From an uncultured bacterium (GTDB taxonomy: Bacteria; Bacillota_I; Bacilli_A; RF39; UBA660), in contig CASFCU010000059.1 in the NCBI GenBank assembly GCA_949293285.1, positions 1-46,785 on the forward strand: a stretch of DNA of 46,785 nucleotides. The letters are read 5' to 3'. Shown here piece by piece: positions 22 to 19,035 of the stretch. Made by a program: the position numbers and the translations under genes. How positions within the stretch are numbered: the stretch's first letter is position 1; every line of letters starts with the position of its first letter. A model generated the notes under the pieces. It was not told the DNA's origin, made no database searches, and worked only from the letters and a program-made list of their open reading frames with translations.

Positions 22-284
22 ATGGGACTCCTTTTATTATTGGGATTTTAATTTTATTATATCAGAAGGGTCCCATATAAGCTTAATAGAAACGAAAATA
101 AATTAGAGGAAGAAACACTCTAATTTTCTTTTGATAAAAAACTGTCCGTAACTAAGATTTGTAGTAGAGTAAAGCATAAGTGTGAGTGTCCGTCCTATTG
201 CTTTGCTTATCCCACGAAAAACCTTTTTCGTGGGGAAATTATAAATTATGAGTTAATTGTATAAATTTATATAAATTAACTTAG

Positions 285-420
285 GATTATACTGATAAAC
301 TGATTTGGCTTTTGTCCCCTAACAACTTCAATGGCACTAATGCTAACGTGTTCAAGGTGAATCCTGCCTCTAGTTTGAACAACAACAACGTCGATAACGT
401 TGATGGGGCCCGCGCCCGGC
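285..420 (+). repeat. DGR template repeat (TR) candidate with 3' G/C-only clamp
   Basis: Local GC island in AT-rich DNA. An open frame from 285 reads DYTDKLIWLLSPNNFNGTNANVFKVNPASSLNNNNVDNVDGARAR. 11 of 33 codons between 321 and 419 are AAY (Asn). The TR ends in GGGGCCCGCGCCCGGC (405-420). There is no start codon or RBS, so it is not a gene. The exact 5' boundary is uncertain. Confidence 0.75.
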
Positions 421-967: not shown

Positions 968-2438
968 TATTACCTATGATACAGAACTCTCTATTGATAA
1001 TATTTATAACATGTGGAATGTCATTCGTAAGACTTGTAAAAACAAAAAAGCTCTTTTGAATTTTTCTATGAATTTATCTACAAATATTGACTATATCTAC
1101 AAAGCATTAAAAAATAGAACATATAGTCCTTATAAATATAACACTTTTATGATTTTTGAACCTAAAGCAAGACTAGTTATGAGTAGTTCTATTCGTGACA
1201 AAATAGTTAATCATTTTGTAGCTAATTATTATCTTATTCCCTACTTAGAAAAAAGTCTCATTGATGTGAATGTGGCTACTAGGAAAAAAAGGGGAAGCTC
1301 TTATGCTATGTACCTTATTAAAAAGTATTTTAATAAAATATTAATTAATAATGCTAAAAAAGAAATATATTGTTTAAAGATAGATATTAGTAAATATTTT
1401 TATTCTATAAATCACAATATACTAATAAAAAAAATAGAGAAAAAAATTTATGATCAAGATATTATTCATTTAGTTAAGTTGATAATTAGTGAGACTAATA
1501 AAGATTATATTAATGATTCTATTTATCAATATAATAAAATTTATAATACTGATATTCCTTTATATGGGAATGATAGAGGATTGAGTATTGGTGCTATGAC
1601 TAGCCAATTTTTAGCCATTTTTTATCTTAATGATTTGAATCATTTTATTAAAGAAAAATTAAAATGTAAATATTACGTTAGATATATGGATGATCTAATA
1701 ATTTTAGACTGTGATAAAGAAAAACTTAAAGAAATTTGGAAATTGATTGTATTCGAAATTGAGAAGTTAGAACTTTCAGCAAATAAAAAAAGTAATATTT
1801 ATAACTGTAGTAAAGGTTTTACTTTTTTAGGTTATAAATATAAGATAACTAACAATAAGTTAAAAATTAGCTTTAATCGTAAAACTTATTTTAAAATTAA
1901 AAAGAAATTAAAGACTCTATATAGATATGATAGGATTAAGTTTAATAAATCACTTGATAGCTATTGGGGATACTTTAGTAATTGTTATACTTTAAAGAAA
2001 GGAAGTTTTAAAATGAAATTAATAGATATCTATAAGTTGTATAAAGAAAACCATTTCGATACTTTAATCATTGTTAAAGATGGAATTTTTTATAAAAGCT
2101 TTTATAATGATGCTAAGATATTGTGGTATTTATTTAACTATAAATATATTAATGATTCTGTCTCTTTTGGTAATGTTCCTTATGATAAAGTAGTTTCTAA
2201 ATTGAAAAGAAATGATATTAATTTTATAATTTTTGATAAAGAAAAAGAGCTTTTATCCTTAATAAAAGAAGATAATACCTATCATTCTTACTCTGATTTG
2301 GCAAATAAATCTTATGATAAAAGATTAAAAATTGATTTACTTTTGAAAAAGTTAGAATTTATTTTAGATAATAATTATAGTTCTTATCAAAAGATAGATT
2401 CTTATCTTGAAAATTTTAATTCATCTTCTGATAATTAA
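951..2438 (+). CDS. DGR-type reverse transcriptase with C-terminal MutS domain-I-like extension
   Basis: RT motifs present: FEPKARLVMSSSIRDKIVNH, ATRKKRGS, KIDISKYFYSINH, GLSIGAMTSQ ([I/L]GxxxSQ, the DGR hallmark) and YVRYMDDLIIL (YMDD). The C-terminal ~140 aa (nt 2013 onward) align to the MutS N-terminal domain. The start is taken at ATG 951 (MKKRNSITYD). Confidence 0.9.
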   Translation: MKKRNSITYDTELSIDNIYNMWNVIRKTCKNKKALLNFSMNLSTNIDYIYKALKNRTYSPYKYNTFMIFEPKARLVMSSSIRDKIVNHFVANYYLIPYLEKSLIDVNVATRKKRGSSYAMYLIKKYFNKILINNAKKEIYCLKIDISKYFYSINHNILIKKIEKKIYDQDIIHLVKLIISETNKDYINDSIYQYNKIYNTDIPLYGNDRGLSIGAMTSQFLAIFYLNDLNHFIKEKLKCKYYVRYMDDLIILDCDKEKLKEIWKLIVFEIEKLELSANKKSNIYNCSKGFTFLGYKYKITNNKLKISFNRKTYFKIKKKLKTLYRYDRIKFNKSLDSYWGYFSNCYTLKKGSFKMKLIDIYKLYKENHFDTLIIVKDGIFYKSFYNDAKILWYLFNYKYINDSVSFGNVPYDKVVSKLKRNDINFIIFDKEKELLSLIKEDNTYHSYSDLANKSYDKRLKIDLLLKKLEFILDNNYSSYQKIDSYLENFNSSSDN

Positions 2439-2542: not shown

Positions 2543-3061
2543 ATGGATAATAGAGATAAAAAGAATATAATGATTGTTGCCCTTTTAGTAGCAGTAGTAT
2601 TTATGTCAGTAGGATATGCCTTATTGTCAGCTCAATTAGATGTAAAAGGAACGACCACTATAGTAGACCCTGTGTGGGATGTCAAAATTACCTCTATAAG
2701 CAGTACAGAAACAGAGGGAAATGCAACTAGTATCGATGCAATGGTTGAAAACAGATTCTCTGCAAAATTCAATGCCCAATTTCAAGCACCTGGAGATAAA
2801 ATAACATATGTAGTGAATGTTAAAAATGAGGGAACGATAAGTGCAGTATTGAATTCAATTACAATTACTCCTGATGATTATGCAGATGGATTTATAGTCT
2901 ATACAATAGATGGCTTAGAAGTAGGGGATACATTGAATGTCGGAGAAACTAAAGTATTTACAATTTCTGCAACCTACAATGAAGAGATAGAAGGAACACC
3001 ACAAGAGGAAGATTTGACAAAAGAGATCACTTTAATACTAGATTATGTACAAAATAAGTAA
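2543..3061 (+). CDS. Small secreted beta-rich protein with N-terminal signal-anchor; candidate SipW substrate (TasA/camelysin-like by context)
   Basis: AGGAGG at 2531-2536 precedes ATG 2543. The N-terminus is basic, followed by a hydrophobic segment and then ...GYALLSAQLDVKGT. The gene sits directly upstream of a SipW-type peptidase gene. The family call rests mainly on context. Confidence 0.5.
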   Translation: MDNRDKKNIMIVALLVAVVFMSVGYALLSAQLDVKGTTTIVDPVWDVKITSISSTETEGNATSIDAMVENRFSAKFNAQFQAPGDKITYVVNVKNEGTISAVLNSITITPDDYADGFIVYTIDGLEVGDTLNVGETKVFTISATYNEEIEGTPQEEDLTKEITLILDYVQNK

Positions 3062-3127
3062 TTTTTTATAAGTTACTTTTTTTTTGCTCATTTATGTTTT
3101 ATAATAATTTCATAATAGGAGCTTGTT

Positions 3128-4273
3128 ATGAAAAACAGAAAAATTATTTTAATGTACATTATTTTATTAGTATATATCATAGCTAATAATTATGTAATCA
3201 TATCACCATTTGCAAAATATTATAATTTATTAATAAATCCATTATTATTACTAATAGTAGCAATGATTTTCTACGTATTATTTCCAAAAAAACAAAGAAA
3301 AATTAGATATAAATATGAACAAATTCAAAATATTATTATCATCTTATTCATCTATTCTATGATATATTTCTTATCAGGATTAATATTTGGGTATGAATAT
3401 TCTATATATGGAAGGGACCTATCTACGATAATTCAAAATATTTATTCCTTCATAACGGTTATTATTTTAAGTGAATATATAAGGAACAAATTAGTAGTAA
3501 ATACTGAAGATAATGCTATAAATAATGTATTAATATCCCTTTTTTTATTATCTATGAGTACAAATTTTACTTATTTAGTCAACCATCTTTATCCCTTTTC
3601 TACAGGGTTTAAATATATGACCAGTAATTTTATACCCGATTTAGTTACAACCTTTATACTCACTTACCTATCCAGAACAACAGGATTAAAAGCTACAATA
3701 ATTTATAGAAGTTGGCTTAGATTAATACCAATAATATTACCAATACTACCTAAATTACCTTGGATACTAACATCTATAATAGGAATTGTTCTCCCCATGG
3801 TAATATACTTTAATATAAGTTATCTAACTATGATGTACGATAGAAAAAATCGAAGATTTTCATTAAATAAAAATGATAAGGGAACAACAATTCTAACAAT
3901 CATAGTAATCATGTTCGTTCTCTTTATCCTAAAAATATTTAAATATTTTCCAATTGCAGTATTATCTAACAGCATGGAAACCACTTTTTCAAAAGGAGAT
4001 GCTGTAATTATCGAAAAGATTGATAAAAATTCTTTGGGACAATTAAAAGTATATGATATAATTTATTATAAGAAAAATAATAAACTTATCATACATCGGA
4101 TAGAACAAATCGAAGAAATAGACAATAAGAGAGTATTTATTACAAAAGGGGACAACAATCCTACAAAAGACCCTTGGTATGTATATGAAGAAGATATCAT
4201 TGGCATTATGAAATTCAAAATACCATGTCTGGGATATCCAGCAGTGTGGTTTAATGAAGCAATAAATAATTAG
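3128..4273 (+). CDS. sipW: Polytopic membrane domain fused to SipW/Sec11-type signal peptidase I
   Basis: The C-terminal ~110 aa read AVLSNSMETTFSKGDAVIIEK...IIHRI...ITKGDNNPTKDPW, matching S26B-type Ser/His/Asp boxes. The N-terminal ~270 aa are multi-TM. The RBS is TAGGAG. Confidence 0.8.
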   Translation: MKNRKIILMYIILLVYIIANNYVIISPFAKYYNLLINPLLLLIVAMIFYVLFPKKQRKIRYKYEQIQNIIIILFIYSMIYFLSGLIFGYEYSIYGRDLSTIIQNIYSFITVIILSEYIRNKLVVNTEDNAINNVLISLFLLSMSTNFTYLVNHLYPFSTGFKYMTSNFIPDLVTTFILTYLSRTTGLKATIIYRSWLRLIPIILPILPKLPWILTSIIGIVLPMVIYFNISYLTMMYDRKNRRFSLNKNDKGTTILTIIVIMFVLFILKIFKYFPIAVLSNSMETTFSKGDAVIIEKIDKNSLGQLKVYDIIYYKKNNKLIIHRIEQIEEIDNKRVFITKGDNNPTKDPWYVYEEDIIGIMKFKIPCLGYPAVWFNEAINN

Positions 4274-4281
4274 GAGGTTGC

Positions 4282-5346
4282 ATGAAAAATAAAGAAAAAA
4301 ATATATTAAAAAGAACAATTCTAAGAAGTATATTATTAGTTTTATCTATTTTCTCTTTAGTAATAGGAATTTTAATAACAGTAGAAGGACTAACAAATAA
4401 CAAAGAAAAAAAAGAAAACATTGTAAATTATGAAACAGGTGGTAAGATTGAATATAATGTTACCTTAAAAGACAATGATTTCTATGACCTGGAAGATATC
4501 AATACGAAAAATATAATAAGCAAATATTTAAATACATTAGATATAAACTTTAAATACGAGTTTTCTTCATCAAAAGCTTTACATTCCAATGCCACGTATT
4601 CTTTAAAAATGTATTTAATAAATAGTTATACACAAAATAACAACGAAGAAGAATTATGGAGAAAAGAATATGAATTATTACCAGAAACAAAAATTACAGA
4701 AAATAAAGCGGTAGTATACTTTGAAAAACAAATTAGTATTAATTATGACGAATATAATGAAATAGCTAGAAAATTTAGAAGTGAATCTGGAATATTAACA
4801 AATTCTTATTTACAACTGGAATTTTCAATAAACAATGAATTAATGGAAGAAACAAAAAATATTAGTTTCGGTGACAATCATGTTTTAGTAGTAAAAATTC
4901 CATTACTAGAAAATATAACTTCTATAGAAAAATTAGGAGAATTTAATGAAAAAGAAAACTTATATAATATTGAAAAAATAGATACCAATTATCTTCAATT
5001 ATCGATTGGCATTTTACTATTAATTGTATCTATTGCCTTTATGATAACTGCTGCAAGAATGTTTATAAATATAAATGAAGTCTCTAAATATATTACGGAA
5101 CAAGGAAGAATATTAAAAAGATATGGAGATGTAATTGCAGAAACCACCACAAAGCCAGATTTAAATAATTTAGATGTAATGGAAATAACAAATTTTATAG
5201 ATTTAATAAATATTGAAGATGAGCTTAGAATTCCAATATTATTCTATGAAAATATCAAAGGAAAAGAGTCTTGGTTTATCATTATTCATAATACGGAGGC
5301 CTATAGATATATTTTAAAAGCAAAAACGAAATCAAAGAAGACCTAA
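4282..5346 (+). CDS. Two-TM membrane protein of unknown function (N-terminal TM, ~220-aa outside domain, second TM, ~100-aa C-terminal domain)
   Basis: The RBS AGGAGG lies 5 nt upstream. The gene is 8 nt after the sipW-like stop, so probably in the same operon. I recognise no catalytic motif. Confidence 0.6.
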   Translation: MKNKEKNILKRTILRSILLVLSIFSLVIGILITVEGLTNNKEKKENIVNYETGGKIEYNVTLKDNDFYDLEDINTKNIISKYLNTLDINFKYEFSSSKALHSNATYSLKMYLINSYTQNNNEEELWRKEYELLPETKITENKAVVYFEKQISINYDEYNEIARKFRSESGILTNSYLQLEFSINNELMEETKNISFGDNHVLVVKIPLLENITSIEKLGEFNEKENLYNIEKIDTNYLQLSIGILLLIVSIAFMITAARMFININEVSKYITEQGRILKRYGDVIAETTTKPDLNNLDVMEITNFIDLINIEDELRIPILFYENIKGKESWFIIIHNTEAYRYILKAKTKSKKT

Positions 5347-18343: not shown

Positions 18344-18682
18344 ATGTATCAAGAACAATTTAATTTATCTCCTAAAGACATATTAGAAAAAGAATTCAAA
18401 ATTGATACTAGGGGATATCGATTAAAAGAAGTGGACCAATATTTAGATCTTATTATTGGAGACTATGAACAATTCTTTAAAATCCTTAAACAATACGACA
18501 AAGAAAAAGAAGAACTATTAGATGAGATAATGAACTTGAAACAGGAAATTCGTAACTTAAAAATGAGCATAGAGATAGCAAAAGCTTCTGATAGTGATGA
18601 TACTAGTAAAACTATTTCTAATGTCGATGTAATAAGAAGATTATCTCAACTTGAAAAAATTGTGTATGGCAAAGATGAATAA
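18344..18682 (+). CDS. gpsB: Cell-cycle protein GpsB (DivIVA-domain)
   Basis: LSPKDILEKEFKIDTRGYRLKEVDQYLDLIIGDYE followed by a coiled coil. gpsB-rnpB adjacency matches B. subtilis. Confidence 0.85.
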   Translation: MYQEQFNLSPKDILEKEFKIDTRGYRLKEVDQYLDLIIGDYEQFFKILKQYDKEKEELLDEIMNLKQEIRNLKMSIEIAKASDSDDTSKTISNVDVIRRLSQLEKIVYGKDE

Positions 18683-19035
18683 TATTTTGGCAAACGCTAT
18701 ATTGATATAATATAGAGGAAAGTCCATGCTCACACAAACTGAAATGTTTGTAGTGTTTGTGCTAGAGGAAAAAATAACTCTAGGTAGCCTTTTGGCTAAC
18801 GGCAATGAAATAGTCTAAGTCAAACAGGATATGACTAAAGTAGTTATAAAGTGTCATAGTGACGAAGAAGCTGGAAACGGCGGAAGTGGAACGTGATAAA
18901 CCCCGCAAGTGAGAAACTCAAATATTGGTAGAGGAGCCTTAACAAAGGAATCAAACGGAGTTAAGGACTAACGAGAGTTAGTAGATAAATGTTTGCCACC
19001 TAGAAATAGGAACAGAACATGGCTTATAAAATATT
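18683..19035 (+). ncRNA. rnpB: RNase P RNA, bacterial type B
   Basis: GAGGAAAGTCCATGCTCACAC, AGTGACGAAG, GTGGAACGTGATAAACCCCGCAAGTGAGAAACTCAAATATTGGTAGAGGAGCC and GGAACAGAACATGGCTTA closely track B. subtilis RNase P RNA. P1 pairs AATATTTT with AAAATATT. Ends are accurate to about +/-5 nt. Confidence 0.95.

Follow-up and report, generated by a model that had tools for sequence, protein, structure and literature searches.

A probable diversity-generating retroelement template repeat beside a truncated target gene in an uncultured Bacillota strain

Diversity-generating retroelements (DGRs), in which a template repeat (TR) is paired with a variable repeat (VR) in a target gene, are to our knowledge the only natural systems for targeted protein hypermutation in prokaryotes. 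The question considered here arises at the left end of contig CASFCU010000059.1 (assembly GCA_949293285.1), a 46,785-nucleotide stretch from an uncultured bacterium of the RF39 lineage of Bacillota, which is referred to at its full length as the window: does a short asparagine-rich frame that runs into a G/C-only clamp represent such a template and, if so, where is the repeat that belongs to it? A sequence-only reading had proposed positions 285–420 as the TR. The present analysis places the TR at 305–432 on the forward strand, and we put at about 0.9 the probability that it belongs to a chromosomal DGR of a low-G+C, spore-forming member of Bacillota whose adjacent target has been displaced by unrelated repeat-like DNA. 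Since tens of thousands of DGRs have been catalogued, one more TR is not news by itself; the RNA architecture of the locus is itself already known, and the element is one more DGR of a known type.

The template repeat and its cognate variable repeat

The frame at 285–419 translates as DYTDKLIWLLSPNNFNGTNANVFKVNPASSLNNNNVDNVDGARAR, and 11 of its final 33 codons are AAC or AAT, as the sequence-only reading had stated; this is the highest density of such codons among the stop-free 33-codon windows on both strands. AAC accounts for eight of the 11, even though the window as a whole contains 2.4 times as many AAT as AAC (AAT:AAC = 2171:907). The run GGGGCCCGCGCCCGGC at 405–420, correctly described as unique in this AT-rich DNA, is the sole G/C-only run of at least 10 nucleotides in the window (G+C content, 28%), where the chance expectation for a G/C-only run of 16 nucleotides is 6.6e-5. 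The TR sequence is identical in five assemblies.

Copies related to the TR that differ at its adenines had been anticipated; none is present in the window, but one was found in a sibling strain. A lookup of the exact SpoIVA protein returned two contigs from other samples (L088 and L090), which reach further to the left and, being 100% identical to each other over 16 kb, represent one strain. This sibling strain shows 99.4% identity to the window from position 157 onward, carries an identical TR, and has its VR at L088 946–1074, ~320 nucleotides upstream of the TR and at the 3′ end of an open reading frame (ORF) of at least 384 amino acids, which is where a related copy had been expected to lie. 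In a 123-nucleotide block, 16 of the 30 TR adenines are changed in the sibling VR, compared with 1 of the 93 other bases (Fisher p = 4.6e-11), and the adenines that differ are located between 321 and 403. The TR first proposed at 285–420 is therefore real, but its limits had to be moved: the homology between TR and VR spans 305–432, and 285–304 is 5′ RNA leader. The clamp is also kept in the sibling VR, as anticipated, but there it measures 14 nucleotides (GGGGCCCGCCCGGC) instead of the 16 in the TR; both versions are followed by AATTTCC, then by T in the TR or C in the VR, and then by TTAA, after which the two sequences diverge.

The sibling target ORF, which encodes a surface-type protein, ends in YWLLSPGYFSGTLAYVFWVIPASGWNYSDYVDDVAGARPAISLKAGTRITGGSGTADSPFVVE and a stop codon, with the layout WLLSP...GARPAISL...PFVVE, and the VR stops ~60 nucleotides before that codon. 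The likeness of the TR peptide to the C-terminal variable module of surface proteins, which had been recognized from the letters alone, is borne out by this target, which ends in ...YWLLSPGYFSGTLAYVFWVIPASGWNYSDYVDDVAGARPAISL...PFVVE and a stop, and by the targets of related loci, which carry YWxLSP...G[VA]RPxVSL. As regards the C-type-lectin fold suggested for this module, which stays putative, the VR region of the sibling target gave a sub-threshold match to Pfam DUF6273 (17.3 bits vs. a cut-off of 23.5) and no match among PDB sequences.

When related loci were compared with themselves, ~40 of them were found to contain a repeat pair in which 80–100% of the mismatches fall on adenines of one copy. 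Nearly all of these loci have the order target (VR)–TR–avd–reverse transcriptase (RT) on one strand, with the VR 300–590 nucleotides upstream of the TR. Their TR/VR homology runs from the Trp codon of YWxLSP through the G/C-rich block, the clamps of the family encoding G-V/A-R-P, with ATTT(T)C as the end point on the TR side and GTTTCAC on the VR side. The position of the TR in the window is that of the verified TRs in these ~40 loci, and at the level of sequence the segment matches the TR/VR template of the relatives exactly. The suggested analogy of the clamp at 405–420 with the initiation of mutagenic homing (IMH) element is likewise upheld: as the counterpart of the (GC)14 of IMH/IMH*, the clamp marks the 3′ end of the TR at the same location as in Bordetella, and the predicted cDNA start lies 2 nucleotides 3′ of it.

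RNA scaffold and protein components

Between the clamp and avd lies a non-coding spacer of 184 nucleotides that is conserved in 28 loci. RNAalifold analysis of the spacer in these loci yielded 26 pairs, 24 of which are supported by compensatory double changes; the paired fraction of cells is 96.7% vs. 33–47% when the partners are slid, and none of 500 shuffles reached the observed values. Just 3′ of the TR, a stem-loop at 443–480 contains 9 base pairs (443–451 with 472–480), all nine of which are compensatory in the 28 loci. The 3′ flank of the TR at 423–431 (UUUC and CUUUA) forms the template strand of a predicted template:primer duplex, pairing with 494–497 and 488–492, respectively, with U493 bulged; the primer strand UAAAG-U-GAAA and the two-nucleotide linker CA (C498-A499) occupy 488–499, and GAAACA is invariant in the family. 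The pairing of UUUC with the invariant GAAA of GUGAAACA is found in 27/27 loci, and the extensions of this duplex covary, being either contiguous (CAC/GUG) or continued past the bulged U (CUUUA/UAAAG in the window, CAAU/AUUG in L026, and CAAC/GUUG in L039). A 12-bp long-range helix, supported by the minimum free energy fold and by covariation, joins the leader strand UAGGAUUAUACU at 282–293 to AGUAUAAUUCUA at 500–511; in 27 full cassettes, 99.7% of its cells are paired, and 8 of the 12 pairs show compensatory double changes. A short stem-loop (513–516 with 520–523) and an A run (524–529) follow at 513–529, where the variants GGA/UCC and GAAC/GUUC are visible in an inconsistent alignment register. 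Finally, a long interrupted stem-loop at 532–590 precedes avd, with compensatory changes in 15 of 17 pairs (6 outer and 11 inner), the structure derived from the window comprising 6 + 14 pairs. All of these helices are intact in the window, and a TR with this covarying scaffold stands beside avd and the RT gene in ~50 loci; Rfam contained no family matching the TR-spacer RNA.

The same elements, in the same order, make up the RNA of the Bordetella ribonucleoprotein (Handa et al., bioRxiv 10.1101/2023.10.23.563531). There, the spacer begins with a stem-loop that binds Avd, and this is followed by a TR:spacer template:primer duplex (TR117–129:Sp47–56), whose last adenosine, A56, primes via its 2′-OH; next come a two-nucleotide linker and an 11-bp duplex, formed by the spacer with sequence 5′ of the TR, that stops polymerization (“cPRT Stop”), and then a short stem-loop with A-minor adenosines, a single-stranded ring, and a long interrupted stem-loop that binds the RT (10.1101/2023.10.23.563531). 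The corresponding elements of the window are 443–480, 423–431/488–497, C498-A499, 282–293/500–511, 513–523, 524–529, and 532–590. Handa et al. also predicted 9-bp stems just downstream of the TR together with the stop duplex in 207 of 278 DGRs, Bacillota included (10.1101/2023.10.23.563531); in those Bacillota DGRs the elements were predicted from sequence, whereas here covariation was counted on 27–28 loci. The locus is a covariation-backed case of the cryo-EM Bordetella RNA architecture outside Proteobacteria and phages, and by this analogy A497 is predicted to prime synthesis, with A422 as the first base to be templated.

On the same model, an RNA starting near 282 would consist of the leader, the TR, and the 184-nucleotide spacer. 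Pairing of the leader (282–293) with 500–511 would close the TR in a loop and form the polymerization stop, while the stem-loop at 443–480 would bind the Avd pentamer and that at 532–590 the RT, and the 3′ flank of the TR would pair with the invariant GUGAAA block within 488–497. A497 would then prime cDNA synthesis from A422 leftward, through the G/C clamp as the first stretch to be copied, and across the TR. The RT would misincorporate opposite adenines, mostly in AAC/AAT codons, and the resulting cDNA would replace the VR at the 3′ end of the target gene.

The proteins that would act on this RNA are encoded directly downstream on the forward strand. The Avd-like accessory gene (605–967; 120 amino acids, predicted to form a four-helix bundle) overlaps the start of the RT gene (951–2438; 495 amino acids), and an Avd-like gene is located directly upstream of the RT gene in all relatives. 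The window RT matches RVT_1 (7.4e-16) and, in its C-terminal part, MutS_I (23.6 bits vs. a cut-off of 20.6), and it carries the DGR hallmark SIGAMTSQ (clade motif [IVL]GxxxSQ) as well as YMDD (YxDD). A profile of the RT family searched against the PDB gave as its best match the Bordetella DGR RT (8ub7_A, 5e-31), followed by a group II intron RT (2e-15) and by retron-type RTs at 2e-15 or worse; the best fold match of the RT model (pLDDT 90) was the DGR RT chain of 8ub7 (TM 0.84). In the model, residues ~355–495 (window 1950–2438) form an alpha/beta domain that matches MutS domain I and, after it, a long helical hairpin. The Avd assignment rests on the family and on the fold: Pfam bAvd is matched by 7 of 30 Avd-family members (best 2e-7), and the top 23 fold matches of the single-sequence model (pLDDT 73.5) are all S23-family proteins or Bordetella Avd chains, with TM values mostly of 0.6–0.8 and weak E-values of 0.03–0.4. 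The window protein alone had no match in Pfam, and the Avd profile had none among PDB sequences.

The closest experimentally described system is the BPP-1 DGR (mtd-avd-TR-brt; PDB 8ub7 series), with which the locus shares adenine-specific differences between TR and VR, a VR at the 3′ end of the target, Avd and a DGR-clade RT, and a G/C-only clamp that in the sibling VR has 14 nucleotides, as in BPP-1. The two systems differ in several respects. The order here is target-TR-avd-RT, so that a non-coding leader, and not the end of avd, supplies the upstream strand of the stop duplex; the window element is chromosomal, whereas BPP-1 is phage-borne; the first stem-loop has a large loop instead of a tetraloop; and the TR clamp is 2 nucleotides longer than the VR clamp, whereas the (GC)14 of BPP-1 is identical in TR and VR (Guo 2011). 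The window RT also has ~150 additional C-terminal residues with the MutS_I-like domain. Three DGR RTs with a C-terminal MutS_I motif were listed by Wu et al. 2018 (PMC5758913), and the window RT resembles them in domain layout, with an extension of ~150 amino acids after the thumb and a weak match to MutS domain I; in contrast to those three examples, it belongs to a large family. In sum, the DGR features found are a DGR-clade RT, an Avd-like gene, adenine bias between TR and VR (via the sibling), a VR at the 3′ end of an ORF (in the sibling), an IMH-type element, and cis RNA elements.

The displaced target and competing explanations

In the window strain, the remnant of the target comprises only 16 nucleotides. 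The stretch at 157–172, which encodes ...F V V E and the stop codon (170–172), is identical to L088 1120–1135 (...TADSPFVVE and a stop), and the break lies 13 nucleotides before the stop codon. The repeat-like flank at 1–156 is foreign to the sibling DGR locus: no homology to L088, L090, or the relatives was found to the left of 157. A longer remnant at 143–172, decayed by an in-frame stop and a 9-nucleotide insertion, was considered and rejected, since the sibling homology covers only 157–172. The flank contains a 15-bp hairpin at 18–80 and a putative gene start on the minus strand (ATG 21–19, GGAG 31–28) that reads off the contig; the putative ribosome-binding site and ATG lie within the 3′ arm of the hairpin, an arrangement that looks like the translational occlusion known from some transposase genes. 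Four assemblies break within the flank, the window contig at 1 and three further window-type assemblies at 43, 55, and 130, and the junction is common to them; if k is 87 for one assembly, as given in its contig name, and takes plausible values in the remaining ones, the shared repeat sequence would end near 141. Comparison of 1–145 with plasmids and phages gave nothing useful, nor did a search for an exact 26-mer from the flank in metagenome and viral collections. Most likely, the flank is the end of an inserted multi-copy and probably mobile element, a deletion or replacement being the other possible origin. Because unrelated repeat-like DNA cuts the target gene, the VR of the window strain is either located further upstream, past the contig end, or lost.

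Two conserved elements separate the target remnant from the TR. A hairpin at 211–235 (forward strand; stem of 10–11 bp, 4-nucleotide loop; −14.8 kcal/mol, z = −4.5) lies ~40 nucleotides after the target stop codon and is found in relatives at the equivalent position, where its stem varies (CCCACG/CGTGGG vs. CCTGCG/CGCAGG); its sequence CCCCACGAAAACCCTTTCGTGGGG is kept in six relatives (L082, L014, L017, L022, L085, and L086) whose RTs are only 55–64% identical. No U tract adjoins it on either strand. Inverted repeats downstream of the VR are a known DGR feature (Guo 2011), and this hairpin may be a terminator of the target gene or a DGR target-recognition hairpin. An AT-rich palindrome at 249–283 (forward strand), which ends in TTAACTTAGG, is conserved and lies ahead of each TR cassette of the family; a role as promoter or operator is possible, although a promoter scan of the region performed no better than shuffles.

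Several observations weigh against the assignment of 305–432 to a DGR. Neither strand of the 46.8-kb window contains a VR: blastn returned background only, and an adenine-masked ungapped scan of both strands gave at best 45/100 non-A matches, which is also background. Exact adenine-masked TR patterns, validated on the window itself, had 0 matches each in GTDB genomes, JGI metagenomes, and IMG/VR; the TR itself is also unmatched there, indicating that the species is missing from these collections. At the protein level, the TR peptide used as a query matched nothing but TR-like peptides from other DGRs, and neither a designed alignment of 61 sequences (all single-position mutagenesis outcomes) nor an exhaustive phmmer search of 1.8 billion representatives yielded anything beyond TR- or VR-like peptides from other DGRs; the window strain's own VR was thus found in none of the collections searched (GTDB, JGI, IMG/VR, and protein sets). 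The VR-bearing contigs are limited to L088 and L090, which come from the same strain and have no bearing on ongoing diversification. Apart from the adenine changes, the TR and the sibling VR differ by one T-to-G substitution, by a 3-nucleotide indel after 378 (five codons in the VR, four AAC codons in the TR), and by a 2-nucleotide indel at 411–412, where the TR clamp has an extra C411 and G412. This last indel changes the reading from GARPA in the VR to GARAR in the TR and, if copied into the VR, would shift the frame of the last 26 target codons. The claim that the codon layout yields diversity without stop codons stands for the AAC/AAT codons only, since the mutable part of the TR holds one codon, AAG at 354–356, that can mutate to a stop and is rare among the verified TRs of relatives. 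Between the window and sibling strains, the RT gene shows 7 non-synonymous vs. 4 synonymous differences, a small sample without evident purifying selection. The site of transcription initiation, the nucleotide that primes, and the binding of proteins are, moreover, inferred.

A separate observation from the protein searches is that public collections contain the TRs of many DGRs called as Asn-rich “proteins” of 46–100 amino acids (P0121–P0132), some of them tagged DUF6273; these entries are probably spurious ORFs.

Several of these points would also be explained if the TR were genuine but the DGR a recently disabled fossil in the window strain, perhaps in the whole species, with TR and VR drifted by indels and homing products out of frame. 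The truncated target without a VR in the window, the two indels and the T-to-G difference, and the stop-capable AAG codon would all follow from such decay, and so might the substitution counts: besides the 7:4 ratio in the RT gene, avd shows one non-synonymous change between the strains, and SpoIVA a ratio of 0:4, numbers that are too small to decide. The window RT further departs from the consensus at 2 of 103 highly conserved columns (V175 and N230, at 90%-conserved columns), where the sibling keeps the consensus; the family median, however, is 1, with a range of 0–7, and the conservation profile of the RT is normal. Against decay, neither the RT nor the avd ORF is shortened, no RNA helix is disrupted, 157–604 is identical between strains that differ by 0.6% elsewhere, and the change of 16/30 adenines in the sibling VR implies that homing was active not long ago. 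The indels themselves could have arisen in other ways, the 3-nucleotide one by slippage of the RT on (AAC)4, while the boundary of marker transfer may fall 5′ of the clamp indel, by analogy with the boundary mapped inside the Bordetella (GC)14 (Guo 2011). Recent disablement is accordingly a possibility to be taken seriously, but we consider it the less probable state.

The separation of TR and VR also has well-described parallels. Non-adjacent or remote targets are found in Treponema denticola and in 45 of 372 DGRs, and DGR components are able to work in trans (Wu et al. 2018, PMC5758913). The window strain resembles these systems in having TR-avd-RT without an adjacent VR and differs from them in that the target of the sibling lies beside the TR, the separation seems to have arisen by secondary disruption, and no remote VR was found. 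More speculatively, and in our estimate improbably, the strain pair could represent a natural on/off polymorphism of hypermutation, in which a multi-copy element inserted 13 nucleotides before the target stop parts the VR from the downstream hairpin and TR-avd-RT while the sibling remains intact, and in which the longer TR clamp is a built-in asymmetry (a donor-only mark or a limit to 3′ transfer) and not a defect. A near-identical pair of strains with and without the target beside the same TR could show whether an uncoupled DGR decays or retargets.

If 285–420 were a pseudogene fragment without a template role, left by duplication and decay of the 3′ part of a gene for a surface protein, its translatability and its resemblance to the C-terminal module of the targets would be accounted for. 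This explanation is very improbable, since the differences from the VR are adenine-specific, unlike those left by duplication and decay, the segment lies inside a covarying RNA scaffold beside avd and the RT gene in ~50 loci, and its AAC richness opposes the codon bias of the genome. Still less credible is a real Asn-rich peptide of 47 amino acids encoded by ORF 312–455: similar ORFs are called in other genomes and stand in protein databases (P0121–P0132), but these entries are TRs of other DGRs in translation, the start codon of the ORF is TTG, with no noted ribosome-binding site, and its boundaries are not conserved while the RNA structure is. The TR of a chromosomal DGR therefore remains the preferred assignment of 305–432.

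Related loci, template repeat arrays, and neighbouring genes

The RT belongs to a family of RT-MutS_I fusions of ~495 amino acids, with 1246 proteins at E ≤ 1e-10 among the candidates scored; the nearest of these is 64% identical to the window RT. The family is represented by 72 loci in GTDB species representatives, mostly gut metagenome-assembled genomes (MAGs) labelled Bacilli, Mycoplasma, Tenericutes, or Erysipelotrichaceae, and shorter relatives from Saccharibacteria align to RT residues 1–345 only. The targets in related loci have 400–1280 amino acids, with N-terminal membrane-anchor, pilin-like (N_methyl), or VWA parts. The window locus is an entry to this large, little-described, gut-associated family.

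Several relatives carry tandem arrays of 2–7 complete TR cassettes, with a period of ~384 nucleotides, between one target gene and avd-RT (L004 43–3600, L011 1–2080, and L013 60–2360; also L023, L014, and L045). Each cassette includes a separate palindrome, leader, TR, clamp, and spacer RNA, and the TRs of an array are different alleles with different non-adenine scaffolds; two papers dealing with multiple TRs report no more than two TRs per element, or several TRs across strains. Some arrays include adenine-poor “TRs”, with 4–10 adenines per 137 nucleotides vs. 29–38 in neighbouring cassettes, that retain the clamp, leader, and spacer RNA (L004 ~3263–3400, which equals L011 ~1741–1878; L013 ~814–950; L014 ~785–920). 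A template free of adenines could be neither mutagenized nor stop-encoding, and a reset template or an overwritten TR are candidate roles. A further TR cassette upstream in the window was ruled out, the spacer profile matching the window once only.

Assemblies of related DGRs often break in or beside the TR/VR pair, as in L006/L010, L007, L009, L085, and many short contigs; the L085 contig begins exactly in the VR clamp. Because of such breaks, the family is likely under-detected by TR/VR-based DGR finders in short-read MAGs.

The neighbouring genes in the window (SpoIVA, HU, CCA-adding enzyme, endonuclease III, PBP1, and RNase P RNA) are chromosomal and not of phage type. The RNase P RNA, at 18682–19031, is of bacterial class B (287 bits), which is consistent with a Bacillota chromosome. 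Directly after the RT gene, a trio of genes at 2543–5346 encodes a secreted protein of 172 amino acids, a membrane protein of 381 amino acids with a signal-peptidase S26 domain, and a DUF5305 protein; these genes are without a VR and are not kept beside the DGR in relatives, and together they look like a SipW-type secretion or fibre module.

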